From: Rhizaria sp. SCN 62-66
Lineage: Eukaryota
Assembly (NCBI GenBank): GCA_001724265.1
Contig: MEDY01000180.1
Location: 1 to 58,236, forward strand
Reading direction: 5' to 3'
DNA length: 58,236 nucleotides
Shown here: in pieces, positions 17,841 through 58,236 of the stretch
How positions within the stretch are numbered: position 1 is the first letter of the stretch
Layout of the letters: each line of letters begins with the position of its first letter
The notes under the pieces: model-generated
Told to the model about the DNA's origin: nothing
Databases searched by the model: none
The model's input: the letters and a program-made list of their open reading frames with translations, nothing else
Made by a program: the position numbers and the translations under genes

Positions 17841-20407
17841 TCACACTCTCACCTCGGTGTTGGCGCTGCCCTTCTGCGCCGCGCCATGCGCGCTGCCACC
17901 GGGTGCCGCTGCGGCGATCGCTGCGACGACCTTGGCGAGCATGCCCTCGATCTTGCGCACGCTGAACTCGGCGAGAAACTTGGCTAGCCCGGCCGGTGTG
18001 ACCACGTTGCGCACGGTCTCGGTGCCGTCGCCATTCACGGTAACTCGCTGCCCCTCGCTGCCCACGGTCACCAAGGGCTGTCCGTCGGGCCCACCGGTGC
18101 TGCTGGAGGCGCTCGGGGACTGCGGTGGCGCGGAGGAGACGCGGGAGCGCGTGGTCGCGAGTACGACCGCTGCCTCGGGGTCGGGGCAAAAGCGCGACCA
18201 AATGTACGTGCAGGGCGTGGGGTACCCGTTGGCGGCCAGGAAGACGTTGATGTCGGCCTGCGTGAGGAATCCACGCCGCGCGGTGTCGAGCGTGGTGAAG
18301 ATCTGCAGCCCCAGGCGCCGCTTGCGGTCGCTGACGAAGTGCGTCTTGACCGTGATGTACGGCGGGAGATCGGTGTACACGGCCGTCGGGACCTTGGAGG
18401 TAAACTGCGTGAGCAATAGGGCGCGGATGTCCCCGCCAACGCCCGGCGCGGCCAGACCGGCGCCGACCGCGCTGTTGCCGCTGTTGTTGCTGCCACTGTT
18501 GTTGCTGCTCGCGGACTCTGGCGCCGAGAACAGCGGCGCAGGGTGGCCCGGCGTGGGCACTAAATCAGCCGCAGTGAGCGCGGGCACGGCGTCGCGCAGA
18601 CCAAGAGCTGTGCGGCGCTCGCGCTCGTCAGCCTCCTGGCGCTTGCGCGCGGCCGCCTCGCGCTGCTGGTGCTCCGCCTCGGTCTGGAATACGGCGGAAA
18701 AAAATCATTAAATTACACGTGGTTAAGACGTATATGTGAGTACTTTGAAGTAAAAATAGACATGTGAACTTAAATAAACAAATTGCATATATATATATAA
18801 ACAAAATACAACATAGTGTAAGAGATGTCCCCAATATGTCGTACCTGCGCACGCTTCTTGGCGGCCTCAGTCTCCTTGCGCCGGCGCTGCTGCTGGCGCT
18901 GCTCACGTTCCTGCCGCCTCTTCTTGGCCGCGGCCGAGACGGGCAGCCCCGCCAGCGCGGCAAGCGTGTCCTCTTCGTCCTCCTCCTCGTCGTCGCGGCT
19001 GTCACTGTTGCTGTCGCCGTCGTCGTTGGGGTCGCGGTGGTCCTTGGCGTTGATGATCATCTTGCCGCTCTTGCCGTAGTGGCCCTGGCCGTGCGCGCCG
19101 CCGGCCTCTGGGTCCGCGCCGTCGTTGTCGTCGTCGTCGGGCCCACCAGGGGTGACGTAGCCTTCCTCGCCAGGACGCGGCCTACCTTTAGCGCCGCGGT
19201 GGCCCGCCTTGTTGCTCCCCGCACCGCTGCTAGCCCCCGCGCTGCTAGCCCCCGCCGCACGGTCGCTGCCACTGTTAGCGGCCGCGGCAGCAACGGGGAC
19301 GGGCTCGGGAGGCGGGGACTTGGTGTACTCAAACGGCGTCCAGGGCCCCTTAGCGGGCAGCGCGCCGGTGGGGTGACCGTGGGTACCCTTAGACCTGTGG
19401 CCGCCGGCGCCGCCGACGACCGATTGAGTGCTGCCGAAGTTAGCATTCTCACCAGCAGCACCATTGTTATCCATAACATTGCTATTGTTGTTGTTGTTAC
19501 GGACGAAGGTGCTGCGGCCGCGGACGCCCAGCACAGACTCGCCGCCGCGTAAGTACTGCTGGTTGCTCGCACCTTGCGCGTTGTTGCTAGCGCACGCAGC
19601 CAAGTTCTTGACGCCGATAACGCCGGTGCTGTCGCCGCCGTTGCTGTTGAGATTGTTGTTATTGCTACCCAGCGTCCCCGTGCTATTCATCGCATTGCTA
19701 TTCGAGTTGTTATTGTGGTTGTTGTTCTGGTGGTGGGGGTGAGCGACGGAGGAGGTGGCGACGAAGCTCGGCGCAACCCTCGCCCCGCGCGGCTGACTGG
19801 CTGCCTCCACCGCGGCAGCCTTGGCCAGCGTGTCCGACGGGTCCGCCGCGCGCGCAGGCGGCGGGCGCGCCAGCACAAGCGGCACTGAAAGCGTCGACAC
19901 CCCCGACCACGTCACGGCGGCCTGCGCCGGGGACCGGCCGGGGCACGCGGGCGCAGTGAGCGCCGCGAGGTCCAGCGAGGCAGAAGCCACGGTGCGCGAG
20001 GGCGGCGCGCGGGCGTCGCCGTCGGCCCCGGCGGCGTCAGCGTCGGCGCGGGGCGCGCAGGGACCGCAGGGCGGGAGTAGCGGGAAGGACGTCAGAGGCA
20101 GGTCGAGCTCCTTGAGCGACAGGCGCAGCACGCGCATGTCAGGGGTGATGCGGAAGGAGAGTGCGTGCTGCCACGCAACCACGGGCCCCGCGTGGTGCTG
20201 CGGGGCCGACAGCGCGGCCGCGTCGTCGTCGGGCTCGAAGTCAACCGCGGCCGCCGCGGCGAGGGCGGGGGCTTCGACACCGACACTCTCGGTGATGGTC
20301 ACGTGTAGGATGCCCGACAGAAGCTCGGGGTCGGGGCCGGTGGCCGCGGCGGGCGGCGCGGCAGCGCGCTGGGTCGCGGGACGGCCGAGGGGGCGCGTGC
20401 CGAGCAT
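17841..20407 (-). CDS. C2-like domain plus EF-hand-like protein, about 801 aa. Exons 20407-18845, 18683-17841 (3' end may splice again at 17852)
   Basis: N-terminal GILHVTITES...VVAWQHALSFRITPDMRVLRLSLKE resembles a C2 domain; IFTTLDTARRGFLTQADI resembles an EF hand. Intron 18844-18684 (GTACGA..CAG) joins the ORFs in frame. Confidence 0.6.
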
Positions 20408-27798: not shown

Positions 27799-28935
27799 AT
27801 GTTTGTTCCGCGCGCAACTCATTTAACCAAGGCCGTGCGGTCGGGCGTGACGGTTGCCTCCGCGTCCGTCGCGCCTCTGCAGTCTTGCTTCTCTTCGTCT
27901 GCCGCGACTGCTGGCTCCGCCTCCCCTGCGGCCTCTGCGGCGTCTGACAATGTCTCCTACACGTACAAGCAGTACATTCGCCCCTACAAGCCCGTGGCGT
28001 CTCACATCCCCCCCAAGCACATGCCCGCTGAGTACACCGTGATGCCCGCGCCCGGTCCCGGCTATGTCGACTCTCAGGGCCCCACCGAGCTCGGCTCTGC
28101 CGAGGGCCAGCTCAAGCTCGACAACTTCGCCTTCGCTGAGCCTTACTACGCTCAGCGCGCCGCCATCGGCCCCTCTGTTGCGCTCCCCACCAAGGTCCAC
28201 TCTACTGCGCGCGACACGCTGTTCACATACTCTCAGCGCGTGTACAAGAAGTCGCTCCGCACGATGCGCTCCATGTACATCAAGCAGGCCAAGCACCGCG
28301 CGCGCCTCGTGCAGGGCATTGCGGACCGCGAGTTCGCGGTGATCCAGGCAAAGAAGGAGCAGTACCGCGCGTGGAAGCTCACCCGCCTCGAAGCCTCTCA
28401 CGAGCGCGAGGCCGAGAACATCCGCAAGCGTGCCGCTGAGCGCATGGCGCACCTCGCCCGCGGCGCCGCGGCCCGTGTCGCGTACGACGCCAAGGTGCTC
28501 GAGCAGCAGAGCAAGAAGATCGCCGTGCTGGCCGACGAGGCGCAGTACTGGGTCACGGACCCCATGGACATCAAGGCCGCGCTGTTCGACAACATCGCGA
28601 GCGTGCCCGTGGGCTGGTGGCCCGCCCCCAAGGTCGGCGCCGACTTGACCGCGCCCGGGTACCGTGCGTCGACCAACTACACGTCGGCGGACCTGGCGTA
28701 TCTGCGCGACGTGCGCGGCGTCAAGACGCCTGTCGTCAAGGGCGAGGAGCGCGGCGCCGACTCCGGTCTCGACATCAAGGACGGCGACAACCTGGACCAG
28801 TTCTTCACCACGACCGAGGACGAGCGCGCGTACTTCGATCACGTGCCGCACAAGTTCGCGACGATGCCCGCTGTCGCCGAGGGCGAGGACGACGCGCCCG
28901 AGGTGCTTCCCACCGCCACCAAGCGCTACAACTAA
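27799..28935 (+). CDS. Probable mitochondrial protein, possibly mitoribosomal mS26-like, 378 aa
   Basis: Arg/Ser/Ala-rich, acid-free N terminus (MFVPRATHLTKAVRSG...SCFSS) resembling a targeting peptide. Long charged helix from YKKSLRTMRSMY to LADEAQYWVT, similar in layout to mS26. Strong C/G-ending codon bias; stop is TAA. Confidence 0.5.
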   Translation: MFVPRATHLTKAVRSGVTVASASVAPLQSCFSSSAATAGSASPAASAASDNVSYTYKQYIRPYKPVASHIPPKHMPAEYTVMPAPGPGYVDSQGPTELGSAEGQLKLDNFAFAEPYYAQRAAIGPSVALPTKVHSTARDTLFTYSQRVYKKSLRTMRSMYIKQAKHRARLVQGIADREFAVIQAKKEQYRAWKLTRLEASHEREAENIRKRAAERMAHLARGAAARVAYDAKVLEQQSKKIAVLADEAQYWVTDPMDIKAALFDNIASVPVGWWPAPKVGADLTAPGYRASTNYTSADLAYLRDVRGVKTPVVKGEERGADSGLDIKDGDNLDQFFTTTEDERAYFDHVPHKFATMPAVAEGEDDAPEVLPTATKRYN

Positions 28936-29615
28936 GCACCGTCGCCGCATTAACGACAACTACTATAACTATAAGAAGCGCGGCGCACTGTCTCGGCAGT
29001 GTGTTGTGTGGCGGCGGGAGCATGGCGAGTGCGCGTGCGGCTGTGAGGCGAGTCGGCTGTTGCTGGGACTTTCTTGCTGCTGCTGCTGTTTTGTGTGTTG
29101 TGCTTTGTTGTGCTTTGTTTGTGTTTTGTTGTGAGCGGGGCGAGTGCGGGAGTTATTTATGGAAGCATGATGCTGTCTCAACAGTTAGCATGCCTACCCT
29201 TTTCAAGCACTCACTCTCTGGCACACTGGACACGCAGGCACGCGTATGAAGAAGCTGCACACACGAACAGCCACAGCAGTTGGTCCGCGGTCGCTACAGC
29301 GGCGACAATGGTGACTTGACTTAAGCTGAGAGGAACATATACTATTATATATAATAATACTAAACGATACGTATAGGGATCAAACATATCAAAGAAGTAA
29401 ATAAAACATTCTATTTTAATCAAAAACTAATCGTATCGCTGGAAAGGGCACCATCTTCACAGAATTATCCTATTTCTTTGTAATGATTGCCATGCCAACT
29501 TCGTCCGGTGACAGCGGCAACGGGCGGCTCGATCGAGGACTGGGACGGCGGTGTTGATGAGACACGGGGATGGGGTTTTTGTTTTCGTGCTCAACGTCGC
29601 CAGTGTCCGTTAACA

Positions 29616-32600
29616 ATGTCTTCGCAGGTACGTCCTTATACAAGCGTTAGTATATTTTACATTCTTAATTTTGGCTTTTGAAAAATACCCACGTATCCCT
29701 TCCTAGCCGCTATCTCCAGACCACAACCAAGCCTTCACGACCGTTGATCTCGATCCTCCGCTCCCCGTTCTCACCACGCTCTGACCCGACTTTCGTTCAT
29801 CTTGTTTCTATTCTGCACAGGAGGCTATCGACGCCTCGTACGAAGAGGACATTCGGCGCAACCCGTACTCGCTGAACAATTGGCGCTACTACCTCTCGTT
29901 CAAAGCCGAGGCCCCGCGCTCGGTGCGCTACGCCATCTACGACCGCGCACTCTCGCACCTCCCGCGCTCCTACAAGCTCTGGCACGCCTACCTCACCGCG
30001 CGCCTTGCCGACTGCGCCGGCCTGCCGCCCTCGGCGCCCGTTTACGCGGACGTGAACGAGCTGTTCGAGCGCGCACTGATCCACATGCACAAGATGCCCG
30101 TCATTTGGCGCATGTTCCTCGACTTCCAGCTGCTGCAGCCGGCACGTATCACCGCCACGCGCCGCAACTTTGACCGCGCCCTGCGCGCGCTGCCCGTCAC
30201 GCAGCACTTGGCCTGGGTGTGGCCCAGCTACCTTAAGTTCGCCGACCAGTGCGGCGTCCCCGAAACGGCCATGCGCATCTGGCGCCGCTACGTCCGGCTC
30301 GCACCCGCGCAGCGCGAGGCCTTCGTTGACACGCTGCTGGCCGCCGGGCAGACCGACGCCGCGGCCGCCGAGCTCGCTGCGCTGGTCAACGACGAGCGCT
30401 TTGTCTCGCAGCGCGGCAAGACGCGCCACGACCTGTGGACGGACCTGCTCAAGCTCATCGTGCCCCACGCGGCGGCCATCACGTCGCTCGACACCGACGC
30501 CGTGCTGCGCTCCGGCATCCGCCGCTACCCGCACGAGGTCGCGCGCCTGTGGACCGCGCTGGCGGAGGTTTACACGCGCCAGGGCCTCTTCGAGCGCGCG
30601 CGCAGTATCTACGCAGAAGCCCTGGAGGCGGTCAACACTGTGCGCGACCTGGCCATCGTGTTTGACGCCTACACGCAGCACGAGGAGGGCGTGATCGAGG
30701 GCAAGATGGCCGAGCTGGAGTCGCTTCAGACCGAGCTCGACGCCTCCGTCGCTGACGAGTCGAACAACAACAACAACAACAACAGCAGCGCCAACGGCAG
30801 TGGCAGTGCGTCGACCGAGAGCGTGAGCGCCCGCAAGGCCCGGTTCGCGGCCGCGCTCAGCGCGTGCGAGCAGGAGGTTGACCTGCGCATGATGCGCCTG
30901 GACAAGCTCATCGCCTCGCGCCCGCTGCTCGTCAACACCGTGCTGCTGCGCCAGAACCCGCATAACGTGCCCGAGTGGCTCAACCGCGTCAAGCTCTGCG
31001 GCGGCGACCCGGCGCGCACGGTCTCGACCTTCGCGCTCGCAGTCGCCACGGTCGACCCCGCGCTCGCCGACGGACAGGCGCAGATGCTCTGGGCGCGCTT
31101 CGCCGCCTTTTACCAGCGCCACAAGCAATGGGGCGACGCGCGGTCCGTGTACGTGCGCGCAGTCGCAGCGCCGTACCCCACCGCCGAGGCGCTCGCGTTC
31201 GTCTGGCTCAAGTGGGCCGAGATGGAGCTCGCCGCGGGCAAGCCCCGCCGCGCGCTCGCCGTGCTGCAGCGCGCCACCACCCCTCCGCGCGACTACCGCA
31301 GCGCCGGTAGCAGCAGCAGCAGCGCCGGCTCTGCGAGTTCGCAGGCCAGCGCGAGTGTGTACAAGAACACGCGTCTGTGGGCGTTCTTGGCGGACCTGCA
31401 GGAGTCGTTGGGCCCTCTCGACGCCGCGCGCGCTGTCTACGAGCGCATGATGCAGCTGCGCGTCATCACACCCGCGCTGCTGCTCAACTACGCCAAGCTG
31501 CTGGAGGAGCACAAGCACTACGAGGACGCCTTCCGCGCCTACGAGAAGGGCGCGGCGTTGTTTCCCTATCCGGCCGTCGCGCCCGTGTGGACCGCATACT
31601 TGCGCAAATTTGTCGACCGCTACGGCGGCGCCAAGTTGGAGCGCACGCGCGACCTCTTCGAGCAGGCGCTCGCAGCCGCCCCGCAAGAGTTTTGCAGGCC
31701 CATTTACCTGCTCTACGCTCAGTTCGAGGAGCGCGTCGGCACGCCGCGGTACGTTTTTGTTAAGATAGAGACTATACGCAATATTCTGAATATGGTATTG
31801 TTTTTTCTTGTAGAATCGTTATAATTTAGTGTTTTCATCCGTTTTTAAATCATGAATCCTCGTTTTGTAAACAACTGTGTAAATCTAACGTGACATTTCT
31901 TCCCACTTTCCTACTTTCCTAACTTTTTCTTCCCTCGCTTTGCCTTCCTCGCAGTGGCCTGATGAAGGTTCTCGCGCGCGCCTGCGCGGCTGTGCCCGCA
32001 GCGACGCGCCTCGAGATGTACCTTGTGTACCTGGTCAAGGCCAGCGAGGCCTACGGCGCGGTGCGCACCCGCGACATCTTCGACCAGGCGCTGCAGGCGC
32101 TGCCCGACAGCGCTGTCCCGCTCATCGGCGCGCGCTACGCTGCGCTGGAGCGCGCGCTGGGCGAGATTGACCGCGCGCGCGGCGTGTACAAGTATTGCGC
32201 GCAATATTGCGACCCCAAGACAGAGGAGCGTTTCTGGTCCACGTTCCATCGCTTCGAGCTCATGCACGGCAACCAGGACACGTTCAAGGATATGCTTAAG
32301 GCCAGGTACGCAGATGTCGCCGAATTTACCTGTAACTGTGATGTAACACGATGAGCGAGGTCGCTTTAGAATACGTTTGGTTTTTATTGTGTCTTTTTGT
32401 ATCATTCATTATTCATTTAAGTCTCTTTGCTGTATTTGTCACATATCTCACGTTCTCTACCACTTTTGCCATTTGTGCTTGCTTTTCAATGAAACTTTGC
32501 TACAGGCGCGCGGCCAAGGTGCACTTCGAGCAAGGCGCCCTGGTCAACGCGGCGTTGGCACAGGCCGCCAAGCTCAAGGAGGAGGCCCGCCGCAAGCAGC

Positions 32601-32935: not shown

Positions 32936-33964
32936 TCAGCGAACACGGCGCGCTTCCAGCCAGTAAAGTGAGCCAAGTTAGCAAATCTCAGACCTGATAG
33001 CTGGACTTGTAGACAGTGACTGTTGTCCGTGGTGATACTCTGTTTGTTCTTGGTCAAGCCTAACTCTTGTGTGTGAGAACATTTCTACTCTGCGGCAAAG
33101 ATTACACGCGTTAAACGAACAGCATTTATCAACAGAGTGGGAGGTCGCTGCATTTCATCCGTGTAATGGCATCCTCACGTTTAGCAATCACAATCACATG
33201 GTGTTTACGATCGAACAGCAGTGGCGTTCTGTTGTTGTTTATCTATAGTACTAGCTTTTCTATGTGAGAGTTTCTTCTATATTGTTTATATTCACAAGGG
33301 CCTGTGTTCCAAATACAGTCCATCATCTTATGACACTTCAGCTCATCGTTGACGATTTTGTGGTGACAGCGGCTGGTGTCCAGTTTGGACAAGTCGTGTT
33401 TTGACATCAACCTCCAGACACATCAAATGATCGTTGTTTGTCAATTTAGCAACGAATCTAGTGACAAACAACGCATTTGCCGTCTTTAATTTTACAATAT
33501 TTTATAAAGATGACATTCCAGCGTGAAATTATGGGACGCCGCGTTTGAGAGGTGCCTTGAGACGAAACAAGATCTAAACCGTGACAAATCGTGTGTTGTC
33601 AGCAGTATTTGTACAGTGTTGCATAAGAAATTGTCGCGCGCACTAAAATCAAATTTGTGTTATGTGCAAATATGTGTGCAACGTCGTACTGTCCCCCGCT
33701 ATCACCCTGCCACCGGGAAAATGCAACTCGATGAACAGGATGAATCACTTGGACTCGCAGTCTTGCAAGTAGTCTGACGGCTTTGTGTTGAAACGTTTCT
33801 GTGATTTGAGATGTCCAGCAGGTATCTGAGGTATCTATCTCACCTTTTACTTTACCGTCTTGTTTTTTTGATTGTTACTTTCCCCTTCGTTGTTTCACCG
33901 CAGATCAACGTTCTCATCGCCCGAAGCACCAATTTGCAGCTGACATTAGCCCGCCTGTGCGCGA

Positions 33965-36900
33965 ATGTCCAACTACAGCGACATTGACAGCGCCCGCGCT
34001 GTGGAGCAGGAGCTGGCGGCCGCTGCTGCGGTGTTTTGCGCGACGCGGACGACGTCCAACGCAACCATCACCACCAAACCCGACCACGACGCGGAGCTGG
34101 CTGCGTTTTACGCCGGCGCAAGCGTTGATTTCGCAGCCCTGCATGTGCCGCTGAAGTGGCCCGACTTGGCATCATTCAAGGGCAAGCCTGCGATAAATGA
34201 GCCGTTGATCCGCTTTCTCCCCGCGGCCAGTCCTGCGCCTTTGCTGCTGCCGCAGTACCACCGGTGGGATGACGACACCGGTGGCGTCGATGAAACTACG
34301 GACGGCGTCGTCTCCACCGCATCCTAGAGCTCCGAGAATGCAGTTAGTTCTATCGGTATGGCATCGACGGTGTTTAATCTGCCACGCAAACCGCGCAGCT
34401 CTGGGAGCCAGGCTCGCAGCGGTGCAAAAAGCAGTCCGTTCAAGTACAGCAACGACTCCCGCGGCTCGCTGCTCATTGCAGAGGCCCTGAGCGACATGTA
34501 CCTCAACGGCAAGCTCAGCGAGCACAAGGCCCGCGACGTAGTTGCAGAGCTCGCACGCGTGACACAGAACTTACCACCCTACATCGGGTCGTTCAACGGG
34601 GAGACAGGCCAGTTTGCGGTCAAGCAATCTGTCGCCGCATTCTCACGAGCGCCGGCGCCTGCACCAGCGCCTGCAGCAGCGTCAGCGCCAGAGCCCGCGG
34701 CAGCGTCAGAGCACGCGGCAGCGTTGCCGGCAGATGTGATCTATGGGAACAACGAGCTTTCACCAACAGACAATACCGACGCATTGCTGCAGTACACCGA
34801 ACCAGTCTTCCCTTTCCTCATCAAAGCCCACCGCCGCCTCACGCGCAACAGAGCACTTATTGCTCCCCAACCGGAGACAGGCGTATTTCTCGCAGAAATC
34901 TGCGACGCGAGAGCCTGGCCTTCGGTCGCAGCACTCAAGCAACTCGCGAACGTGTTTATTTCGCAGACCCCTCCACTCAATTCCAAAGAGCATCTCAGCG
35001 ATGTTGTGCTACTTGCGAACCAGCTCTACGAGTTGTTTCACCACGCCACGCGCACCGACACGAATGTCGGATTTGCGCTGCCCTGGCCCACCGGGCTTGC
35101 AGACCCGACGCTGGCCGCGCGCGCAGGTCCGCTGCTGCTGGCGCTGGCTGACGCGCGGTACCAGAACCGGCCCCAAATGCCCGCGACGGGGCCCTGGTCG
35201 GCGGTCAGGCAGCGGCAGATGTTTCTTATGAAGGCCGTGACCGCGTTGAACTTAGCTATCCACCCGATGTTGCGCTCGCTGTTCGCCGCCGACGTCGATT
35301 GGCGAAACGACTGCTCACCGGAATCTTTGGCGCTGCGTGCGGTTCAGCGGAGTGTGCCGAAGATCTTTGTCCAGGACGGGAGCCTTTTCACAATGGCGGA
35401 GCTTGAGCACATACTCGACTGCATGGCCGTGCTGTTGACAGTGGTCAACAGGTCCCGCCTGCCGCTGGTTATGGGGCGCTCGTACCCGGCCGTTGGTGGC
35501 GGCGGCGTGACATCATTCCATGAGTTGCGCTACCACTCGACCGTGCCGTCATTTCTTGCTAATTGTCTCAACCCACGCACACAGGACATGGCTGTGCAAG
35601 GCTCTGAGAGTCTGCGCAGTCAAATGCAGCTGCCGCTCCTGCCAGAGGGCGAACACGTGACGAAGTCGACTGTTGTGAGGGCGCTCGTGCGTTTATGGTA
35701 CCGCACGCGCGCGCTGCTTGTGACCGACCAGGCTGGTGTCGACGCTTGCTTCACACACTGGCATCTGCTACAGCGCGCTGTTGCTGCCAACCCAACGCTT
35801 TTAGAGATGTTTCCCACGGGTATATTGACGCCAACTGGCGTGGGAACAACGGTGCACACAATTCCAGCACTTATTGCACGTTTGCGCCTCTGTATTCCGT
35901 ACTATGCAGTTTCAGCCACTGCCCCTCTGTCTTGTAAGACGCTGCAAGAGGCTTTTACAACGATGGGCGCGTCGCAACAAGACGCGCTGCTGGTTGATTT
36001 GAGCGAGATGCTGCGATTGCTCGAGGATTTACCCTATTCTGTGTTTGAGTTCTCGCACTTTCTCACGCTCAAGAGCGCTCTGATGCCGTTCTATAACCAT
36101 CCGCAACATAAGTATCGTATTCGCCGGTTTATCGAGTTGTGTGGCAAATCGGCCGATGATATGCTCAATAGCGCGCTTTACGCGGTGTTATTTCACATAC
36201 TAAGCAAAAATCACAACGCATTTGGTAGCCCTAGTGAATACGTGACCGTGTATGCCGACTTGCGCAAAGACATCTTGCCTGCCGCATGCGCCTCGTTTGC
36301 GGCTGTCGACGCTATTGCCACGCTCGGAGCTGAGAACGAGTCGCAGTAGCAAATGAGCACCCGAGTCACTGCGGGCTTGGCGAAGCGGGATCCTAGAGCT
36401 CCTAACCAGGGCCTCTTGGTTGATTCCATATGGTATTTTTCTTTCGACTCGATTCCAGCGTCTTCACTAGCGTCCATAGACCTCGAGGCGCTCGACTGCG
36501 ATGACTTTTTCATCGGCCAGGTACTGCTCTCGACCATCTGGCGCTGCGACCCGTGGGGGCTGGCACGCATGTATAATAAGCCGACACCGATCAATTGGCG
36601 CCTATCCTACCTTGCTTTTAGCTTCGGGACTGTTCCATTCCTTCATAAAGATGATAAGTTGAGCACTAACGGGGTGGCCGGCGAACAGACCTTTGTGACG
36701 CCACTGTTTGGATGCTCTTTCGACCTCATCCCAGGTTTTTCATCGGCGGTGGAGACCTGGGCCTTCAGGTCCGGTGCCAGTGCCGCTGATTTTCGGACCA
36801 GGAAATTCTCGGTGATGAGCGCGCTGGCGCTTGTGGCACACCCGCTATTTAGCAATGCGCTCCTGCTCGAGGCAAAGTCCGTGGCGGATTTGTCGAGCCA

Positions 36901-38533
36901 TATCGGCGGGCTGTACTGCGAGATGATGGGCGTGCTGCACAAGAGCGTATACACAGGGGTGTTCAACGACGGCAAACTGCTGGACACATTCTTGGACACG
37001 GTTGGGCGGCTGCTCTCTGGGTGCAACCGCGTTGGCAAATTGCATCTGCGACATAACAACTTATCCGATGCGACTGGCGATGCATCGCCCCTCCGCCCGA
37101 ATGTGGGTTCGGTCCATCAGTCTTTGCGGTTCGTGCCAGGATTGCTTTGTGCGGGCTCAGCGGCCGAGAAGGACAGGACTGACGAGGCCATACTGGTGGG
37201 GCTGCCGCTGGATTTTTTTCCCGCTAATACGCGTGAAATGAGCGATATGTGCTTTATTTTACGCCTTCGACTCTGGTACCGGTTGCGCTTTGTTCCATGT
37301 CGCAGTGCACGCGAGATCGTCGTCCTTAGCCGGCTGCACGCGTCTTTGATGCGCAATGATGCTGAGTTAACCCATGCTCGCTTGCACAGCGGCGATGCTC
37401 TATCTGGTACCAAGAGTGCGACAGATACGGAGTCCATGGCGCAGGAGTTGGTGTCAAAACTCACAAGTTACCTCGTTTCTAGCGGCGCGCGAGATATTTA
37501 CCTGCTGCTGGATACCGTTCAAGGTGCGCTGTGGGCGATGGGGGCCACGCAGAGCGACTTGCCAGCTCGAGACGTCTGGTGGTTCCGCGAGCTGTTTCGC
37601 GCACTATCATATGATCTTGGGATCACATTCCCTCAGCAGACACTTCGAGAACTTTGCGAGTACGCCGCAAGCGAGGCCGTGCCAGTTTTCGAGCACACTG
37701 TCTCGGAGGTTTTCCGCGTGTCCACAGAGATGACTCTCGCTACTCGGGACACTGCGGGTGATGAACTTGATCCGACGCGCGACACGAACGTTATGGAGAT
37801 CGAGATGAATCCGTCAATGATGAAGGCCTTCTCAATTGCGCTGATGTGGCTCCACAGTTAGCGGTACGGCGACCCGCAGCGGGCGTCAGCTGCACTTACA
37901 GTGCAACGCCGACTTTTCCCGTTGGAGGCGAGCTCCAACACTGAAGCATGCAGTCGGAAGCAGCTGTACAGCTCCGTGGCCGACCGCCGCCGCGAGACCG
38001 ACACGTCGTTCCCCTGGCCGTTCCGCACGTGCGCCAAGGACATCCCGCGCGAGCGCGAGGCCTTGCGGCGCATCGCCAAAATGAACGCGCATCATGATCG
38101 TGATTTCGCGAAAAAGACAAGGATTCATGACTTGACGATCCAGGCTCAGACGCGGCTTCAGGTGGGTGGCTTTTGGAAGCAGCTCATCTCCCAACTCGAG
38201 CACAAAGGTCCGCTGCACGATGCGACGTTACGAGAGTTTGCTCGCCAAATGCAGCGCCCAAGTGCGAGTGGTGTGTGGCGGAGCAAGAGTGACCACGCAC
38301 TTTACCAGGGCTCGACACTCAAAGGGTTCAAGCATGGGCGCGGCGTGCAGCGCCACTCCGACGGCACAGTGGAGCGCGGCAGATGGGCTGGTGGAGTCAT
38401 GATGGGGGCTTTCGAGATTGAGAGACCCGGAGAACCGCTTGCGCGAGTTACGTACGCGACTGGCAAGGTGACGGGCGTGGTCACAGCGGTCGACGCAGGC
38501 GCCGTTGGGGCGTTATTGATGAGGTTCGTGTGA
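33965..38533 (+). CDS. Single 1522-codon reading frame with three in-frame TAG codons (34325, 36347, 37859): an unknown tandem-duplicated domain plus C-terminal MORN repeats
   Basis: The track ORFs 33965-34327, 34358-36349, 36353-37861 and 37901-38533 are all in one frame. The gaps (30, 3, 39 nt) are stop-free and each break is a TAG. C-terminal YQGSTLKGFKHGRGVQRHSDGTVERGRWAGG is MORN-like. Ends in TGA. Confidence 0.7.
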
Positions 38534-41020: not shown

Positions 41021-41376
41021 GTGGGAAAGTGCTGAGAGACCTGCGTGGATGCAGTCTTGCGACAATATGAATTTAAAGCTACAGAGAAAACTGTCGGCAA
41101 ACTACGGACAGCTTTGTCGCAGTGCTATTTGACGTCCAGGAACGCGAGATCAGAACGAAATGCGACTGCCACCACAAGAACCTTTCGCTCTTCTCCCACG
41201 CCTGTTCAATCACCGTTGACTTCTTCCCAATGCATACACCACTTACTTTGATCGTTAACGAGAAATTAACAAGTATTTATGGACCCAAAGCTGACGAATA
41301 TACACTTTCTCTTTTACAAAATTTGTGTAGTCTTCTCACTTGCTGTAGATATCTTCGTTCTAAGGAGCGCAGTGTG

Positions 41377-43866
41377 ATGTCACAATCTCTCCCTTCCGCT
41401 TCGTCGCCCGTCGCTGCACCTGCTGCAGCGCGCGCCCCCGCACCCGCGCTGCTGGGCGAGGACGTTTTGGCGATGCAGTTGGCCCACTTGGGCGTGCGCC
41501 ACGTCTTCGGCGTGGTCGGCATCCCTGTCGTGGGCTTCTCGCACGCGTGCCAGCGCGCCGGCATCAGCTTTTTCTCCTTCCGTAACGAGCAGTCAGCGAG
41601 CTACGCCGCCGCGACCTACGGCTACCTCACGGGCCGCCCCGGCGTGTGTCTATGCGTCTCTGGCCCCGGCGTTGTACACGCACTGGCCGGGCTCGCCAAC
41701 GCACAGGTCAACGCCTGGCCCATGCTCCTGCTGGGCGGCTCCCACCGGCTCAGCGACACGCACCGCGGCGCCTTCCAGGAGGCCCCCGCGACGCACGGTG
41801 CCATGGTTGCACCCTACGTCAAGTTTGCCGCGTGTCCTGTGGACCTGGAGCACGCCGCGTACTGCTTCACCAAGGCCCACGCGGCCGCGGTCGGCGGCAG
41901 GCCCGGACCTGTGTACATTGAGCTCAGCGAGACACTGCTCACGCTACCCGTTGCACACAACACGAACAGCTCCGACAATAGTAGCGCGACTCACAAGAGT
42001 ATTAACCACGATGTCAGCACTTTTGCGTTGGATAAGAGCGTGTATGACTCGTTTATTCTCCCTGCGCCATGGTCCCCCCGGCCCGTGCGCCTGCTCCCGG
42101 CGCCCGCCAACCCGGCCGCCGTGACCGCCGCGGCCGCCGCGCTCACCCGCGCGCGGCGCCCGCTGCTGTACCTGGGCAAGGGCGCCGCGGCCTCGGCCTC
42201 TGCCCCCGCGGCCGCTCTCGCGCTGTGTTCCAGGTTCGGCATTCCGTTCCTCGCCGCGCCCATGGCAAAGGGCGTGATCGATGACGACCACGCGCTGTGC
42301 GCGGGGGCCGCGCGCTCGCGGGCGCTGGCGCAGGCCGACGTCGTTGTGCTGGCGGGCGCGCGCGCGGGGTGGATGCTGCGCCACGGCAAGGGGCTCGCGG
42401 CCAAGGGCCCGCTCACGGTCATCCAGATCGATGTAAGTGGCGAGGAGGTCGGCTCAGTGGGGCTCGTCGCGCCGCAGCCCCGCTTTGGCACCGCTTCCGG
42501 ATCCGCTGCCGCCGTCAACGGCCCATGCGCTCTCAGCGACGCGATTGCGCTGCAGGGCGACGTGGGCCTGGTGCTGGGTCAGCTCGACCGCGAGCTCTCG
42601 AAGCCTCAGGACGCCGCCGTCACTGCGAGTGCTGCTGGCGTAAGCGCAGACCGTGAGCAGTGGGTGCGCGCGCTGCTAAAGCTGGCCGCCGCGTCCAAGG
42701 CCAAGCTCGACGCCAAGATTGCCCGCGACATTCTCGCCTCGACGCCAACAACACAACAGTCCCAGTCCCAGTCGCAGCCACTCGGTGCTGCACAGGCACG
42801 TCAGCCGCAGTCGCACTCGCCGCCCCCTGCGCTGGAGCGCGCTGCGCTGATGTCGTACCACGCGGCGCTCGGCACTCTGCAGCCGCTGATCCCGCCGACC
42901 GCGACGCTCGTCACCGAAGGCGCCAACACGATGGACAACGCGCGGCTTATCTTACCGTCGCACCGCCCGCGGCACCGGCTTGACGCGGGCGCCTTTGCCA
43001 CCATGGGGCCCTCGATCGGCGCCGTGCTCGCCGCGTTCGTCGCCCGCTCAGAGCCCGACACTGAGTCCGCTTCTGCGGTGCCGCTGGTGGTGGGCGTGTT
43101 CGGCGACTCGTCCTTCGGCTTTGCGGCCATGGACGTCGAGACGCTGGCGCGCTACCGTGTCCCCGCAGTGCTTTTCGTGATAAACAACAACGGCATCTAC
43201 AGCGGCAGCGACACCATCGCCAATGGGCTCGCTGAAGAGGCGCACGACGCGCGGGCCCAGCTTACGGTCACCACGTGCGCCAATAACAATAACAATCGCG
43301 ACCGTGACAGCGACTCTGCTGGCGGCTGTGACGGCCGCAGTGGGGTGGCGGGCTCCATCTCGCCCTACCATCCGCACAACAGCGCGGTCTCAGCCCTGCC
43401 TCACAGTCACTCTGCTCACGGTCACTCTGCTCACAGTCACTCTGCTCACAGTTGCAGCCCCTCTGCTTCCGGCCCCGGGGCACCCGTGGCGGCGTCGCTG
43501 CCAACCACGGCGCTGACGCCGCACCTGCGCTACGACGCACTGGCCGTTGCGCTGGGCGCGCATCCCACGCTGAGCTGCACCGTAACCACCCCCGCCGCGC
43601 TGGCTGCGGCCGCGCAGCGCGCGTTTGAGGCCGTCGCCGAGCACAATAACAGCATCAGCAACAGCAACAATGCGAGTGTGTTGCTGCCGGTGGTGATCAA
43701 CGTCATTATCACACCAGAGGGCGCCGGCGCGGCCAAGCTCAAGTCCACCGATGCCTTCTTTGGCGGCAGCGGTAAGGCGACTGCTACTGCTACTGCTGCT
43801 GCTGCTGCTGCTGCTGCTGAGAGTGTGGGCAACACCATCAAGACGACACTGACGGCGGCGCTGTAA
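41377..43866 (+). CDS. HACL1: 2-hydroxyacyl-CoA lyase / oxalyl-CoA decarboxylase family TPP enzyme, 829 aa
   Basis: VFGVVGIPV, FRNEQSASYAA, GVCLCVSGPGVVHALAGLANA, GRPGPVYIE, EGANTMD, HRLDAGAFATMG, and TPP motif GDSSFGF...VINNNGIY. Stop is TAA. Confidence 0.9.
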   Translation: MSQSLPSASSPVAAPAAARAPAPALLGEDVLAMQLAHLGVRHVFGVVGIPVVGFSHACQRAGISFFSFRNEQSASYAAATYGYLTGRPGVCLCVSGPGVVHALAGLANAQVNAWPMLLLGGSHRLSDTHRGAFQEAPATHGAMVAPYVKFAACPVDLEHAAYCFTKAHAAAVGGRPGPVYIELSETLLTLPVAHNTNSSDNSSATHKSINHDVSTFALDKSVYDSFILPAPWSPRPVRLLPAPANPAAVTAAAAALTRARRPLLYLGKGAAASASAPAAALALCSRFGIPFLAAPMAKGVIDDDHALCAGAARSRALAQADVVVLAGARAGWMLRHGKGLAAKGPLTVIQIDVSGEEVGSVGLVAPQPRFGTASGSAAAVNGPCALSDAIALQGDVGLVLGQLDRELSKPQDAAVTASAAGVSADREQWVRALLKLAAASKAKLDAKIARDILASTPTTQQSQSQSQPLGAAQARQPQSHSPPPALERAALMSYHAALGTLQPLIPPTATLVTEGANTMDNARLILPSHRPRHRLDAGAFATMGPSIGAVLAAFVARSEPDTESASAVPLVVGVFGDSSFGFAAMDVETLARYRVPAVLFVINNNGIYSGSDTIANGLAEEAHDARAQLTVTTCANNNNNRDRDSDSAGGCDGRSGVAGSISPYHPHNSAVSALPHSHSAHGHSAHSHSAHSCSPSASGPGAPVAASLPTTALTPHLRYDALAVALGAHPTLSCTVTTPAALAAAAQRAFEAVAEHNNSISNSNNASVLLPVVINVIITPEGAGAAKLKSTDAFFGGSGKATATATAAAAAAAAESVGNTIKTTLTAAL
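43400..43451 (+). repeat. 15-bp tandem repeat CTCACRGTCACTCTG x3.5 inside HACL1, a member of a dispersed repeat family
   Basis: Directly visible. The reverse complement (CAGAGTGACCGTGAG) recurs at about 4557-4592, 7379-7416, 24858-24871 and 26357-26400. Confidence 0.85.
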
Positions 43867-48288: not shown

Positions 48289-49814
48289 GTAGCAAGTACT
48301 TCATGTATAGCTCTCAAGTGTTTGTCTTCGTACCTTCTGAAGGTACACTTTGTATAGTACTCTGTGATTGCCCCCCCCCTTATCCCCATTGCTCATGTGT
48401 CAAAGTTCCTCGTCGAGGTTCCCAGTGTAACGTGATGAAATGTAACCAACGCGCGTTTCCGAATCATGTGTGTTTAGCACCACCGAAGTAAGTACTTTCG
48501 CCACAACCGTTTTTTAAGTTTTCGGCTTGTCGAAGTACTTTTGATTTCATATTGCTCTGTTTTGTTGCGACATTTTTGTTGCTGTGATTACACTGTCCCT
48601 CATTACACGGCACTTCGCTGTTCACTTGTTGACGTTGCCCCTAATTTGTTGCTGTTGTCGCGGAGCGTGTTTCGCCCTCTATTTGTTCTCGACGCCACTC
48701 TCTTTGCTGCCCCCTATCCCCTGTGTACTCATGTGTTCACTGAAGCAATCCATGTTTCTGTGTTACACGTGTGTGTTTGCGTTTGCATTTATATGTGTAT
48801 ATGTATCCCTCTTTTCCCCCCTCTTTTTGTCTTGTTTTTCCTTCGCTTGCTCTCCTCATTTGTCCCCGAAATCTTTATTATATCAAATTGCGTTGATTTT
48901 TTGTATGCGTTTTATTTTTTCGCTTAGTCCGTGCTTTCGTAACTTCATTATCTGTTTTAGTAAGTCATTCCACGACACACCGCTTTATTTGCTTGCTCGT
49001 GGCTATGTCGCCCTTCCCCTTTTCTGCCTGTTTCAGCTCTGTGTGTTCTTCGCACTCTGCCTGTGCCAACCCACGAGTCTGCGAACGTGCTAGTGACCTT
49101 TTTCGCGTTGCCTCTCGTCTTCATTCGTGGGCGTCGTGTTGCGTGTCTCGTTTGCTTTTCATGTTCTTTCTATCAATTCCCGTTGTTTCCACTTATGCGC
49201 TACGCTCTGTCTGCTCTCGCTTGCTGTTCATGCTGCGGTTTTTCTAGAGTGGCTATTGTCACGATTGATTCGTACAATCGCCATCTCTGAACATCACAAA
49301 GCATCTCATCATCCAAGCAGCTCCAAGCAGCGCCAAGTAACTTCAGCGCATCGCATCACGACCCCATGTTTCTGCACGACATCTCATCATTATGCCGTAG
49401 TCTTGTCCTGATCAGTTGCTCCTTTCAGCATGGTCAGTCTGCTTTGGTGCCTTGTGCGCGGCGACAAGATTGCAACTCTCATAACATCAAAAATCCCAAT
49501 AATAATCACCACATCTTTTAATGTATATTTCCGTTTAATACCTTGTTGTCATTCGATTCCACTCATGACAATAGCGTCACGCTCAGTATTTGGTCTTAAG
49601 AAGAAAGAACATTCGTCGCAGTCCCAAACAGCACATTCATCGCGAGCAGCACTGCGTCGCTCATCGCCAGGAGCAGCGTGTTATCTTTACTGTGTAGTTG
49701 GCTGTTGATGCCACATTACTGCTCTTGCATCATCTGCTAAAGCAAGTATGGCAGCGATGTTCGGTGTGCACAATCGAACCGCTGCATGGACTGTGTTCTT
49801 TTCATGTTAATTTA

Positions 49815-49844
49815 ACAGTTAAATCGTCGACAGTTAAATCGTCG
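49815..49844. repeat. Perfect 15-bp direct tandem duplication ACAGTTAAATCGTCG x2
   Basis: Directly visible in the non-coding region. Confidence 0.9.
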
Positions 49845-52161
49845 TGTTGTTTCACGTACACGATTTTCAATGTTTGCGGACGCTTGTGTTTTATGTGTTT
49901 ACGTTTAGTGATCATTAGTTATCTGTACCTTTGTTTTATCTCATTGAATTATTTTATCCATTGTTTTTATCCGGATCATATTCTAGCTACTCATTTGTTA
50001 TCTCTTTCGTGCGTTTTGTTTCGTTGCTGTTTCTGCCTGCACACTCTTTTTTTTCTGCAGTTCATCAACCCTTTGTATTGCTGACAAACTTGCTACATTA
50101 CCGTTAATAGCAAGCTTGTTTGCAAGGTCAGCTCGTTCAAGCCTATCACCGTTTTTCCGTCATCACCGTCATAGGCTGCTTTTTCACGTCCAGATCGCCA
50201 TTGACGCTGCTGTTGTTGTTTGCTAAACGCAGTGAATTCTCGCGAGCTGTATGTGTTTTAGACGTGGAGGTTTGCAGATGTTTCTTTTTTTAACATGTGT
50301 TTTTTTTGGTCATCCCCGCCCCTGTTCCTCTTGATGTCCTAATTCATCATCGCGCTCCCGCGGTGTTTGTATTGCCTTCACCATTGCCGTTGCCATAGTT
50401 ACTTGGTTACTGTCGCCCCCATCATTTCTGTCGTCTTCACCGACGTTTGCTCTGCGTGTTGTCATGTCTGCGCATTCACTCTTTCATTCTTTCATTCTCT
50501 CTTTCGTTCTCTTATGTTTGCATCCTGCCCTGTTCTGCTCCGCCGCGACGCTGCGTCATCGTGACCTTCAGCAGAGCTCGCGCGCCGATGTTCGAACCAG
50601 AACCTTTCACCCCTCCATTCTCGTCACTGTTCTGCTATGTTCTATTCTGCCCCACTCTGTGTTTCCCATTACGTTAGGTCTATCTTTCTCCCTGGTGATC
50701 AATCCTTTCTTATGTTGTTTCGGCCGTCGATCCTCTTACACACACACATCTCACCCGCGAGTATGTATAATTTCTAGCCTACTTTGCTTTCTGCACTCAA
50801 TTCCGCCTCCGCTCCGTCGGAGTGCCCCCCGAGTCGCATCCTATGTATGTCCACATCGTGTGTATCAGTACCAACGCCATTTATCTTTTCATTTTACCCG
50901 TTATCACTTAGTTTATTTTGGTTTATTTTTATCTACTAGCATGTTTTTGTCTTCTTGTTTCCGCGTTTGACGCCGCTGCCGTCGTCGTGATATTTTGACC
51001 ACACGTTCTATACGAGAACATCAACTCCTCGGCTTTATCCTCCTGTCTCAAAAGCAATTGCTTGCTTTGGTGGAGACATGAGTACTCTCGCATCATACCC
51101 GTGTGAGTCCTATTGCCAGGTACACACACACTTATTGTGTGCTAACAGAGTACCGCTGTGTGAAGTTGTAGTCATCGTATTTTACTTGGTCTTCTGACCA
51201 CGACTCTGTGCGCCGCATCGCAAAACACAAGACCTTATCCATAGCAACGACAATATCAAAATCAACAACACAAACAACATATGTATCTATTCCTTATCAA
51301 TATCCCTTTCGTCACCAGCCTCGTCATCACCTTCAGCATCACTTAACACATTACACTCAGCCACCTTTTCATGCACACACACACACACTCGCTCGCTCTC
51401 TCGCTCGCTCGTAACCAACCCAAGCAACCCTCGCCGCGTGCGCCCTCGTCCTTCGCTGCCACTCTCGCTGCGCTCCACGCGCGACGTCCGCTCTCGGTTG
51501 TGCACTGCTCTCGCCCCACTCTCTTTCATACCCACTTGCTTTGTCGCAATCATCGCGGCACTCATGGTATGGGAGGAGTTGGGGTCGGTCCGTGTCGTCG
51601 TTCGCGTTCGTAGCCGTGGGTCTCAACCTGAAGTGCAAAGCGGCTCGGGGCGCGCTGGCCGCAAGCCATGTAGCCGTGTCTTTGCTTTATTTACGTTTAT
51701 TTCAACGATCAGCAGTATTCTCCGTGTCAACGCCTTGTATGCTCTATATTGCGTTGCTTATGTCCACGATCTCTATCCTTTTTAAGGGTCTCGCCACAAA
51801 TTTTCATCTCCTGACAGTCGTGTTGAGAATACTACTATATGTTGTCGTAAAAGTAGATGTTTTAATCAAAGCCACACAATACACACCGCGCTTGCTCGCA
51901 CTATATGGTATTTTGCCTAAGAAAGCTGGCCTAAGAAAGCTGTTTCTCCAAACCAAGCGATCTCTCAGCATGGATAATGTACCTGAAGTACAAATATTCT
52001 TTTGCGAAAAGGACTAAGACATATACTTATAATAACTATGTATGCATTTGTTTTATACCATAAACCGTAACATTGTTCTTTTTCAAGCGCAGCCTTCAAT
52101 GCGTGCGTTTGCCTCATCTGGCTTGCTTTGCTGGCTGCATTGCCACGGGCGACAGACGCGC

Positions 52162-52810: not shown

Positions 52811-53350
52811 ACGTACTGCCGAGGGATGCGCGCGAGACAGGGAAGCAGTCGAAGGGGAATAAGCAGGAGACGTATAGAGAAAGATGATGATCAATTTGAG
52901 AGAAATCAGAAAAATATAATATACCGAATTACAATTGAACCCTAAGGTAATCGCTTTGATATCGCCTATCGGTTCTACTGAGATGCGCTATCCATTTGAA
53001 GTTGCCCGTCTGTGCGTCGTGCGGCTGACCGGTGCCAACGGCTGGGGTTGATCTTCTGCTTTCACTACTCCATACAGGCTTGTATCATCGTCACATTCGA
53101 ATGCAACGGCGCATACGCGCTGTTACCGCTACCATGTTTTTATTATATAATTAGTTTTCGCGAGATATGTAAGCTCACCTCTTCTGCTTGCTCGCCCCCC
53201 CCACCCCTGCACCACTTGCAAGTCAGCAAGTAAACTTTCTCGCCTGCGTCTGACGAGCGCGCATCCATTTCACGAAGCCACAGTTCGCTATCACTAAACC
53301 ACTACGTTTTTGTTAAACGGTACCACCGCTGTCTTTTTGTAAGCTCTCAG

Positions 53351-55985: not shown

Positions 55986-58236
55986 ATGCTGAGACGCAGT
56001 CGATGGGGGGCATTGCGCCTCCTGTCTCTCATTGCTCTTGTGATGCTCATGGCATCTATGGTCTCTGCACAGTGGTACTACAGCACCACGAAGTCCTCCG
56101 TCCATATAGCCTACGAGACGGCGGGTCAAACCTGCATCGAACAACTACCGTCGTTGCACGGCAGGTGGTTGCACGTTCTACATGTACTATGGCAAAACTG
56201 AGGCATATGCGCTTGACTATGGCTGCGTCAACACGATTACTAACTCCTTTAACTACTGCGGCGAGTGGTCGCCACGAGGCCTCAACTGTTGGTGTGATGA
56301 TGCCTGTTGCTCTTATAACGACTGCTGCTGGGACAACGTGCGCAACTGCAAGGCGCCGCTCATTGACGGCGTACAGCCCACCCGTGCGCCGACAGGCCCC
56401 TTGAAGTCAACCATTCTCACGCTCACCGGCGACGGCTTCGCCTGCCGCGACAAGTCCACGACCCCGCAGGCGTACGTCACCATGCACAACATGCGCGGCG
56501 CGGCTCGCCCCGCGAACAACATCAGCCCCAACGCCTACGTTGTGCCCACCAGTACGATGATCGCGACGACGCAGCTGTACACCTCGTTCTACTTGCCCTA
56601 GGACTACGGCCCCAACTGGTACTTTATCCTGCGTAACTGCTACTTCGTGGTCGGTCCCGCGTCCGCAGACCTCTTCTCGTACAACGTGCCGTCGCTGGAG
56701 GGCCTCTCGCCGACGACGGGCGCGACCCGTGGTGGCAAGGCCGTACTCGTGCTTTCGACGATGCAGGGAACGAGCTTCGGCAACAGTGTACCACTCACGG
56801 CCGGTCTCACCGTCGCGCGCTATTACTGCACGCTCAGCAACGGCTCAACCGGCGTCTTCAGCACGGTGTACAACACCAATATGACAGTGACCAACCACAC
56901 GAAGCTGATCTTCTACCACCCGGCTGGTGAGGGCACGTGCAGTGTCTCGCTCGAAGTGAGCTCGCAGTCTGTGTCCGTGTCGCGCCTGTCGTTCGCCTAC
57001 CAGCCGCCGACGATCACGTCCGTGACCCCGTCAGTGTCGCTCACGCCTGGCACCTCGATCACCCTCAGGGGACAGAACTTCGGCGTCACGCCCAGCGTCA
57101 CCGTCGCCGACATCTCCTGTCCGGTTACGAGCAGCACCGTCGACGGCACGACCGAAGTCCTGGTCTGCACGCTGCCGCTGGGCTACCGCGTGTCGCAGCC
57201 CGTCGTTGTGGCCGCCGGCGGCCAGCGCAGTAACGTCGTCTACGTGTCGTACGCGGCGCCGGTCATCAGTATCGTCAGCCCGTCGACCGGCCCCACGGCC
57301 GGCAGTACCGCCGTGACGCTTACCGGCACCGGCTTCTACATCAGCGGCTCGATGATCTTCGGCGGCACGACGTACGCGTCGACAAACACGACGATGTTCA
57401 CGAGCTGGACGACGACCCAGATCGTGTTCAAGACGCCTGCCGGACAGGGCAAGAACGTGGCCATCTACCTCGTCGTCGGTGACCAGCTCTCGGCCACGCC
57501 CGGCGCCTTCAGCTACAACGCGCCCGTGATCGCGAACGCCACGCCCAAGCCCGGCGCGTCGGGCGCCACGCTCACGATTACGGGTACTGACTTCGGCACC
57601 AGTGGCTCCGTCGCCGTCTCCGGCCTCGACTGCGCCATTTTGACGCACGCCACGACCCAGATCACGTGCACCATCCCGACGGGCTACGGCAACAACAAGG
57701 CCATCCTCGTGACCATCAGCTCGCAGTCGTCCAACTCGTATGCGTGGAGCTACCCCGTGCCAGTGGTTTCGACAGTGAGCCCGCTCACCGGCGGCACCGA
57801 AGGCGGCTACAAGCTCACCATTGAGGGTCAGTACTTTGGCGACACGGGCAGCTTGCTCTTGGGCGCCATTGGCACGGCCACGTCGGGCATCAACTGCGTT
57901 AGTTCCTCCTGGACCGCCACGAAGATCATTTGCGAGCTCGCCTCTGGCAGCGGTCAGAACCTCTACGCCATCGTCTCCTCCGGTGGCCAGACCGGCGCCG
58001 CCCCCATGGGGTACCTCTTCTCGTACGGCGCGCCCACGGTTACTTCCGTGACGCCGCTGACGGGCTCCACGTCCGGTAGCACGCAGCTTATCATCACGGG
58101 CACCAACTACGGCTCCAGCACCGTCGCGCAGGCCGCAGGCGTCGTCACCATCCGGTACGACTCGCTCGCCGGCGGCGCCAACTGCACGCTGCAGTCGCGC
58201 GACCACACGCAGCTGCTGTGCTCGACCAGCATCGGT
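55986..58236 (+). CDS. Secreted/surface protein: signal peptide, somatomedin-B-like domain and multiple IPT/TIG repeats. Contains an in-frame TAG (56599) and a frame discontinuity near 56125-56165; runs off the window
   Basis: Signal peptide MLRRSRWGALRLLSLIALVMLMASMVSA. SMB-like CWCDDACCSYNDCCWD. Repeated P-x-I-x-x-V-x-P...ITLxGxNFG...CTLPxGxG...FSY units, open from 56602 to the window end. Confidence 0.8.

Follow-up and report, generated by a model that had tools for sequence, protein, structure and literature searches.

Three in-frame TAG codons in a 1522-codon gene suggest that UAG is read as an amino acid in a GC-rich eukaryote

In this study, we examined a 58,236-nucleotide stretch of DNA (contig MEDY01000180.1 of assembly GCA_001724265.1, Rhizaria sp. 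SCN 62-66; hereafter the window) and, within it, a gene at 33965..38533 on the + strand whose reading frame contains three TAG codons. The window has a guanine-plus-cytosine (GC) content of 62% and contains 0 N. It is a eukaryotic locus with long, intron-poor genes and spacers that are richer in adenine plus thymine (AT). Its recognisable genes encode the Syf1 splicing factor, a thiamine pyrophosphate (TPP) enzyme resembling 2-hydroxyacyl-CoA lyase, and ankyrin, CBS, RRM and IPT/TIG proteins; further genes encode YIF1, a protein with a CCZ1-type longin domain, peptidase M49 and signal peptidase. The spacers flanking the gene at 33965..38533 are AT-rich and 440-1029 nucleotides (nt) long, and the 440 nt on the 3′ side of its terminator have a GC content of 0.39. 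Under the standard code, the gene appears as four open reading frames (ORFs) that lie in a single frame, measure 120, 663, 502 and 210 amino acids, and are separated by linkers of 30, 3 and 39 nt. An earlier note on this DNA had fused these ORFs into one frame of 1522 codons holding three TAGs, and retranslation agreed with that description. The main features of the gene are given below, together with its alignment to P0003 and P0002, two proteins of a related organism.

33965..38533, + strand: protein-coding gene of 1522 codons plus TGA, intronless (translation, codon-usage log-odds, related proteins P0003 and P0002)
33965..33967, + strand: start codon ATG, aligned with M1 of P0003 (MSNYSDI.. 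versus MPNFSDI..)
34325..34327, + strand: first in-frame TAG (TAG1), codon 121; P0003 unbroken across it, with P in the column; local identity (±10 residues) 0.14
35228..35524, + strand: second strongly conserved block, residues 422-520 (MKAVTALNLAIHPML...); 63 of 98 covered residues identical to P0002
36347..36349, + strand: second in-frame TAG (TAG2), codon 795; P0002 unbroken across it, with R in the column; local identity 0.19
37859..37861, + strand: third in-frame TAG (TAG3), codon 1299; P0002 unbroken across it, with D in the column; the conserved RY.DP..AS follows directly
37862..38080, + strand: best-conserved block, residues 1300-1372, directly past TAG3 and without ATG; 50 of 73 residues identical to P0002
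38531..38533, + strand: terminator TGA; the protein ends in ..GALLMRFV, matched by ..GSLMMKFM at the end of P0002

The start codon is preceded by an in-frame TGA at 33941-33943, and the + frame across 33965-38533 contains three internal stops, every one of them TAG. Coding potential was measured as codon-usage log-odds, for which 11 further window ORFs (10,371 codons) served as the training set. In frame 0, the four segments delimited by the TAGs scored +48, +125, +92 and +26, respectively, and the other two frames scored -54 to -262. Moreover, the frame-0 log-odds were positive in the 40 codons preceding each TAG. The gene has the lowest GC content among 13 window genes (0.58) and a low GC content at third codon positions (GC3, 0.67), and rare codons were enriched 2-3-fold (TTG 35 and TAT 9 per 1523 codons). 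The fourth ORF starts at GTG; past TAG3 there is no ATG before codon 1373, which lies 73 codons further on.

Residues 111-1310, used as the query of an exhaustive HMMER search, returned four proteins, namely the gene's own ORF3 (P0001, 100% identity), P0002, P0003 and one spurious repeat protein (E-value 3.9e-4). P0003 (241 amino acids) spans residues 1-240, from the shared initial methionine straight across TAG1, and P0002 (1364 amino acids) spans residue 422 to the final residue, across both TAG2 and TAG3. The two proteins are 43% and 42% identical to the protein of the 33965..38533 gene; together they cover 1323 of its 1522 residues, with 556 identities. Over the covered residues, identity in segments 1 to 4 was 45%, 48%, 36% and 42%. 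When all 73-residue windows were ranked by identity to P0002, residues 1300-1372, just past TAG3, came first of 1450. Because none of the three TAG positions interrupts the related proteins, whose start and C-terminus also coincide with those seen here, the comparison of sequences strongly supports 33965..38533 as a single gene for one predicted protein, as the earlier note had proposed. Given that the 73 codons past TAG3 are both the best conserved and free of ATG, a separate cistron is excluded for segment 4, which translation must reach, or must once have reached, through codon 1299.

The nature of the public protein sets bears on how P0002 and P0003 are read. For this genome these sets contain prokaryote-style ORF calls, and database proteins of this lineage are therefore fragments: P0001 (36353-37861) is ORF3 of the 33965..38533 gene, P0012 (29923-31824) is a GTG-started ORF call that runs into a Syf1 intron, and ORF2 of the 33965..38533 gene is present letter for letter in the protein atlas. 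In view of such calls as P0012 and P0001, P0002 and P0003 are probably stop-bounded ORFs as well. The relative's gene would then have an interruption, be it an intron or another in-frame stop, somewhere in the part that corresponds to residues 241 to 421, a region in which the gene studied here is open. Scans of a contig collection limited to bacteria and archaea yielded no DNA of relatives.

Six introns were seen in the window, at the following positions.

12280-12404: intron with GTACG[TC] 5′ site
12875-13000: intron with GTACG[TC] 5′ site
13533-13674: intron with GTACG[TC] 5′ site
29628-29820: intron with GTACG[TC] 5′ site
31749-31954: intron with GTACG[TC] 5′ site
32306-32505: intron with GTACG[TC] 5′ site

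All six start with GTACG[TC], measure 125-206 nt, have a GC content of 0.34-0.46 and end in YAG. Such an unusually uniform 5′ splice site is typical of intron-poor eukaryotes. Were the TAGs of the 33965..38533 gene removed by splicing, they would be the ends of short in-frame introns. In principle each could serve as a YAG acceptor (CCTAG, CAGTAG and GTTAG), one real intron of the window ends in CTCTAG, and a GTACGC at 37660 sits 199-202 nt before TAG3, inside the size range of the real introns. The earlier note had found no GTACG introns in the linkers; the pentamer itself does occur three times on the + strand of 33965..38533 (at 37660, 37864 and 38452), but none of the three can be an intron start. 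There is no + strand GTACG from the start codon to TAG1 or TAG2. From 37660, the distances to a CACAG at 37858 (199 nt) and to the end of TAG3 (202 nt) are not multiples of three; the span from 37660 to TAG3 has a GC content of 0.55-0.56, above that of the real introns, and encodes AASEAVPVFEH, which is conserved in P0002; and the CACAG acceptor, if used, would leave TAG3 in frame. The positive log-odds directly before each TAG also speak against an intron there. The lowest-GC stretch of the gene (36027-36216, GC 0.44) is coding sequence, since the residues that it encodes are conserved in the relative. No intron can remove any TAG of the 33965..38533 gene, and removal of the TAGs by splicing is hardly credible.

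To place these TAGs in context, in-frame stops were counted across 13 ORFs of the window (12,517 codons), giving 4 TAG, 0 TAA and 0 TGA; the ORFs were delimited by TAA or TGA, and only the TAG count is informative. Three of the four TAGs are those of the 33965..38533 gene. The other one lies in the gene for the IPT/TIG protein.

56599..56601, + strand: in-frame TAG, the only other one in the window genes, within a repeated domain motif of an IPT/TIG-domain gene

This TAG sits in a recurrent ..C-x-L-P-x-G-x-G.. domain motif with conserved flanks on both sides, and it is therefore truly within coding sequence. At gene ends, TAG was absent: the 14 ends in the window comprise 7 TAA, 7 TGA and 0 TAG, a small sample. 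(Fifteen ORF ends were listed; the TAA at 12290 was dropped, as it lies inside the intron starting at 12280, and 3 of the remaining 14 are less certain.) The in-frame TAGs of the 33965..38533 gene suggest that UAG is read as an amino acid. The gene's weak codon bias fits a model in which UAG is a sense codon, because its rare codons are enriched. We consider it probable (roughly 0.6) that UAG is translated, most likely because this organism has ceased to use it as a stop. The UAG-sense code of the earlier note is thus retained as the best explanation, in keeping with the absence of TAG from gene ends, with the reservation that the case is built on one gene and that the residues aligned to its TAGs differ.

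Several observations weigh against this reading. Of the 2 genes that carry an in-frame TAG among the 13 ORFs of one 58 kb window, the second is also frame-switched; the TAG at 56599 was counted as weak support for that reason, and TAG and frame switch in the same gene do not amount to independent support for UAG as a sense codon. The other 11 ORFs (10,309 codons) contain 0 in-frame TAGs, versus three in the 33965..38533 gene, a clustering such as is seen in a dead gene. TAG is assumed to end 15-25% of genes normally; under that share, 0 of 14 TAG ends would arise by chance with a probability of ~0.02-0.10, which is suggestive only. The comparison of the TAG positions with a relative, which had been proposed as a check, yielded continuity and sense codons at all three, but the residues found there (P, R and D) have no amino acid in common. 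At the position of TAG 56599, 56 homologous IPT/TIG motifs have mostly A (31), then E (7), P (6) and S (4), again with no consistent meaning. All four TAG sites are variable positions, at which a test for one amino acid has little power. It had also been noted that the TAGs fall near module boundaries; this is loosely true in that all three lie in poorly conserved stretches, but local identity around TAG1, TAG2 and TAG3 is at the 7th, 16th and 40th percentile, and a preference for variable positions was not significant (Fisher's method, p ~0.09). Finally, no transfer RNA (tRNA) gene was found within the window, and none of the window genes was recognised as one for eRF1.

The main rival to a translated UAG is a young unitary pseudogene, that is, a formerly functional single gene that took three TAG nonsense hits while UAG was and is an ordinary stop; its product would be a 120-residue fragment or nothing, and the relative's copy would still be functional. 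The 33965..38533 gene resembles a unitary pseudogene in that its premature stops are clustered in one gene with an intact relative. The lack of a consistent residue at the TAG columns, the merely weak preference of the TAGs for poorly conserved surroundings and the lowest GC content among the 13 ORFs count on the same side, and the frame switch in the other TAG-bearing gene fits gene decay in this genome. That all three stops are TAG, to which the earlier note had drawn attention, is correct but less surprising than 1 in 27: given the codon content of the gene, TAG is the commonest nonsense codon reached in one step (54%), and three of three would be TAG with a probability of ~0.15. On the other hand, a unitary pseudogene is expected to carry mixed disabling lesions, and only the three TAGs were found here; across 4566 nt there are 0 frameshifts and 0 TAA or TGA, and the frame is intact from start codon to terminator and still collinear with the relative. 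Nonsense changes make up 3.2% of substitutions, and three hits thus imply ~90 substitutions along with several indels. If the indel-to-substitution ratio is 0.03-0.1, three disabling lesions would all be TAG substitutions with an estimated probability of ~0.4-3%. The window around the gene is compact and gene-dense, and decay of this one gene would leave the absence of TAG from 14 gene ends to chance. On balance, a pseudogene is rather unlikely.

Readthrough, programmed or leaky and specific to this gene, would keep UAG as a normal stop elsewhere and would give nested products of 120, 794, 1298 and 1522 residues. In line with this, all four segments are conserved, so that the full-length product matters or once mattered, and TAG2 is followed by CAA AUG, which partly resembles UAG-CAA-UUA, a known type of leaky stop context. 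However, the contexts of the four TAGs of the window differ (next bases AGC, CAA, CGG and GAC), the 100 nt downstream of them fold no better than shuffled sequences (z +0.25, +0.73, -1.14 and +1.18), and each of the three positions is a sense codon in the relative. Moreover, three readthrough events in series at typical efficiency would yield almost no full-length product, yet the best-conserved block lies past TAG3; we regard readthrough as improbable. The least credible proposal is that of four separate genes or cistrons in a polycistron-like unit, each with its own stop. ATGs do follow the first two TAGs closely, 30 nt past TAG1 and 3 nt past TAG2, as the earlier note had observed, which is mildly unexpected given that methionine makes up 2.5% of the residues. 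This alternative fails at segment 4, whose best-conserved part is the very stretch without ATG, and at all three junctions, across which the relative's proteins are fused; in addition, gaps of 3-39 nt in a single frame contrast with the intergenic spacers of this locus. The TAGs could also stem from a null allele in the assembly or from errors in base calling or assembly, and an assembly indel could account for the frame switch in the neighbouring IPT/TIG gene. It is very unlikely, however, that three independent substitution errors would each produce TAG in one gene, none of them in a homopolymer; other long ORFs of the window, one of 2676 codons, are intact, and there is no N. Errors of this kind therefore seem very improbable, and even taken together, introns, separate cistrons and sequence errors have only a slight chance of being the explanation.

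If UAG is translated, as we consider probable, one intronless gene would give rise to a messenger RNA with three in-frame UAG codons for a 1522-residue protein. The ribosome would translate the three UAGs as an amino acid and terminate at the UGA at 38531. UAG would no longer be a terminator, and UAA and UGA would terminate in its place; UAG would instead serve very rarely as a sense codon, mainly at unconstrained positions in genes of weak codon bias, and would be read by a tRNA that pairs with it, either a dedicated one with a CUA anticodon or a near-cognate. Published precedents exist for UAG as Gln, Leu, Ser or Glu. We infer both the decoding of UAG and its validity across the genome. A tentative extension, in itself doubtful, is that the organism is at an early phase of UAG codon capture, in which UAG has gone from gene ends and has re-entered coding sequence at ~3 per 10,000 codons. 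In that case, genes of weak codon bias would tolerate UAG at positions without constraint, a natural intermediate of reassignment in a GC-rich, non-ciliate-like eukaryote, and the split into four ORFs would be an artefact of annotation with the standard code.

Codes in which UAG alone has been reassigned have been described in several lineages. In Iotanema spirale UAG is Gln, and in the rhizarian exLh it is Leu, while UAA and UGA remain stops (PMC5304391). That report gives 384 UAGs in 71 genes for exLh, with 56 UAA and 15 UGA as terminators, and a UAG share of ~8% of Gln codons for Iotanema; the UAGs fall on conserved Leu (exLh) or Gln (Iotanema) positions (PMC5304391). Our window resembles both organisms in that its in-frame stops are UAG only and its terminators UAA and UGA only, and it differs in having just 4 TAGs in 12,517 codons, three within a single gene, and no residue that recurs in the aligned columns. 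Compared with the published UAG-only codes, the present case matches in kind and differs in degree, with UAG rarer by a factor of roughly one hundred. In the green alga Scotinosphaera, TAG is Ser, TAA and TGA are stops, and many genes, among them those for actin and GPI, have TAG where Ser is conserved (PMC8271138). This resembles the code proposed here, in which TAG alone is reassigned and TAA and TGA terminate. The closest homologues of the window's Syf1 are 69%, 63% and 57% identical to it, followed by that of Bigelowiella (~47%) and those of plants and green algae (43-46%); it is no closer to the green-algal and plant proteins than to those of animals, and the organism is therefore probably not a green alga. 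In the protein atlas, Syf1 matched broad eukaryotic clusters only. A further comparison is with ciliates in which UAG is reassigned; their genomes are AT-rich, with hundreds of internal UAGs, whereas the window has a GC content of 62%. In phyllopharyngean ciliates and in NCBI table 15, UAG has been independently reassigned to Gln or Leu with UAA as the main terminator (PMC11687900). We found no literature report of a GC-rich non-ciliate with rare UAG sense codons, which does not show that such a code is unpublished.

If UAG is a sense codon, annotation with the standard code splits genes of this genome. The public protein sets already carry two of the four pieces of the 33965..38533 gene as separate proteins. 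A GC-rich, non-ciliate-like eukaryote would then join the short list of organisms in which UAG and UAA are uncoupled, and a rare UAG could show an early phase of stop-codon reassignment, a phase that has so far mostly been inferred. Should the gene be a pseudogene, the finding would be ordinary.

The fused 1522-residue protein itself matches no Pfam family; with E-values up to 10 admitted, the only Pfam matches were sub-threshold ones to MORN and GYF_2, both in the tail. A word-indexed search for full-length homologues among proteins of near length gave no match. The following internal features were noted.

35576..35710, + strand: weak internal repeat, copy A (..LP..RLWYRxR), from hhalign of residues 422-794 versus 796-1298
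37154..37288, + strand: weak internal repeat, copy B, from the same alignment
38303..38371, + strand: MORN-like repeat in the C-terminal tail; Pfam MORN (PF02493) E-value 0.3, 11.5 bits versus a cut-off of 22.5

Segments 2 and 3 had been described as carrying a repeat, A and B. They share two collinear motifs, RLWYRxR and MGAxQxD, with an equal spacing of ~120 residues, and hhalign matched them weakly (E-value 0.0016); the probability of that match was 16%, BLASTP of segment 2 versus segment 3 was not significant (E-value 0.12), and no repeats linking the segments were found at the DNA level. A MORN tail had also been proposed. The match stays below the Pfam gathering score, but the profile of the tail found radial spoke head 1 homolog (E-value 0.0012) and MORN1 (0.0027) among solved structures, with matches ranging from 0.0012 to 0.007. 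The predicted C-terminal tail may thus be MORN-like, a borderline assignment that covers ~45 of the 1522 residues; unlike in MORN-repeat proteins, the remainder of the protein matches no family. For ORF2, the atlas model is poor (predicted local distance difference test score 0.35), with structural template modelling scores of at most 0.30, and the atlas feature matches, all below 0.9, are HEAT/ARM-like leads only. These language-model leads weakly suggest a possible alpha-helical repeat scaffold.

The gene that holds the fourth TAG, at 55986-56601, encodes IPT/TIG and somatomedin-B-like domains, with a convincing signal peptide in the frame of the ATG at 55986. Its Cys-rich conserved body is in the +1 frame, from ~56150 (ATG 56182). 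The switch of frame, at ~56140-56175, is matched by GC3, with no GTACG intron to account for it. Copies of an 8-nt direct repeat, GTTGCACG, start the stretches at 56152 and 56167. This may be a pseudogene, or the assembly may contain an indel here. A 130-nt candidate intron of the form GTACGT..TAG (56472-56601) was rejected because it has a GC content of 0.62 and a length that is not divisible by three, and because its removal would delete the conserved TQL..LP motif.

Elsewhere in the window, no Rfam family was found at gathering score. The TPP enzyme at 41230-43866 has its best structure matches in 2-hydroxyacyl-CoA lyase and oxalyl-CoA decarboxylase (E-value 5e-93); it is 2-hydroxyacyl-CoA lyase-like, not an acetolactate synthase, and offers no clue to taxonomy. 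At 878 residues, the enzyme is ~300 residues longer than the matched chains, which implies insertions or extensions. A region of ~5 kb at 48300-53300 has a GC content of 0.48 and is pyrimidine-skewed on the + strand (GC skew -0.13 to -0.22, AT skew ~-0.28); it contains no coding-like ORF, the three ORFs tested there had no Pfam match, and no repeats were found in it. The ORF of 452 amino acids at 10934-12292 ends within the intron whose 5′ site is at 12280. Exons at ~12405-12874 and 13001-13532 apparently join it by splicing to those of the peptidase M49 (DPP3-like), the last of which ends at 17473, so that 10934-17473 would be one long multi-exon gene and not two. Two convergent ORFs, at 17593-18711 (+) and 18770-20407 (-), have ends 58 nt apart; the final 60 nt of the minus-strand ORF have a GC content of 0.25, and its true end may be elsewhere. 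Finally, T/G-rich words of the TGTT/TTTG type occur at 29080-29140, ~150 nt past the TAA of the gene at 27799-28935, and could be a 3′-end signal.

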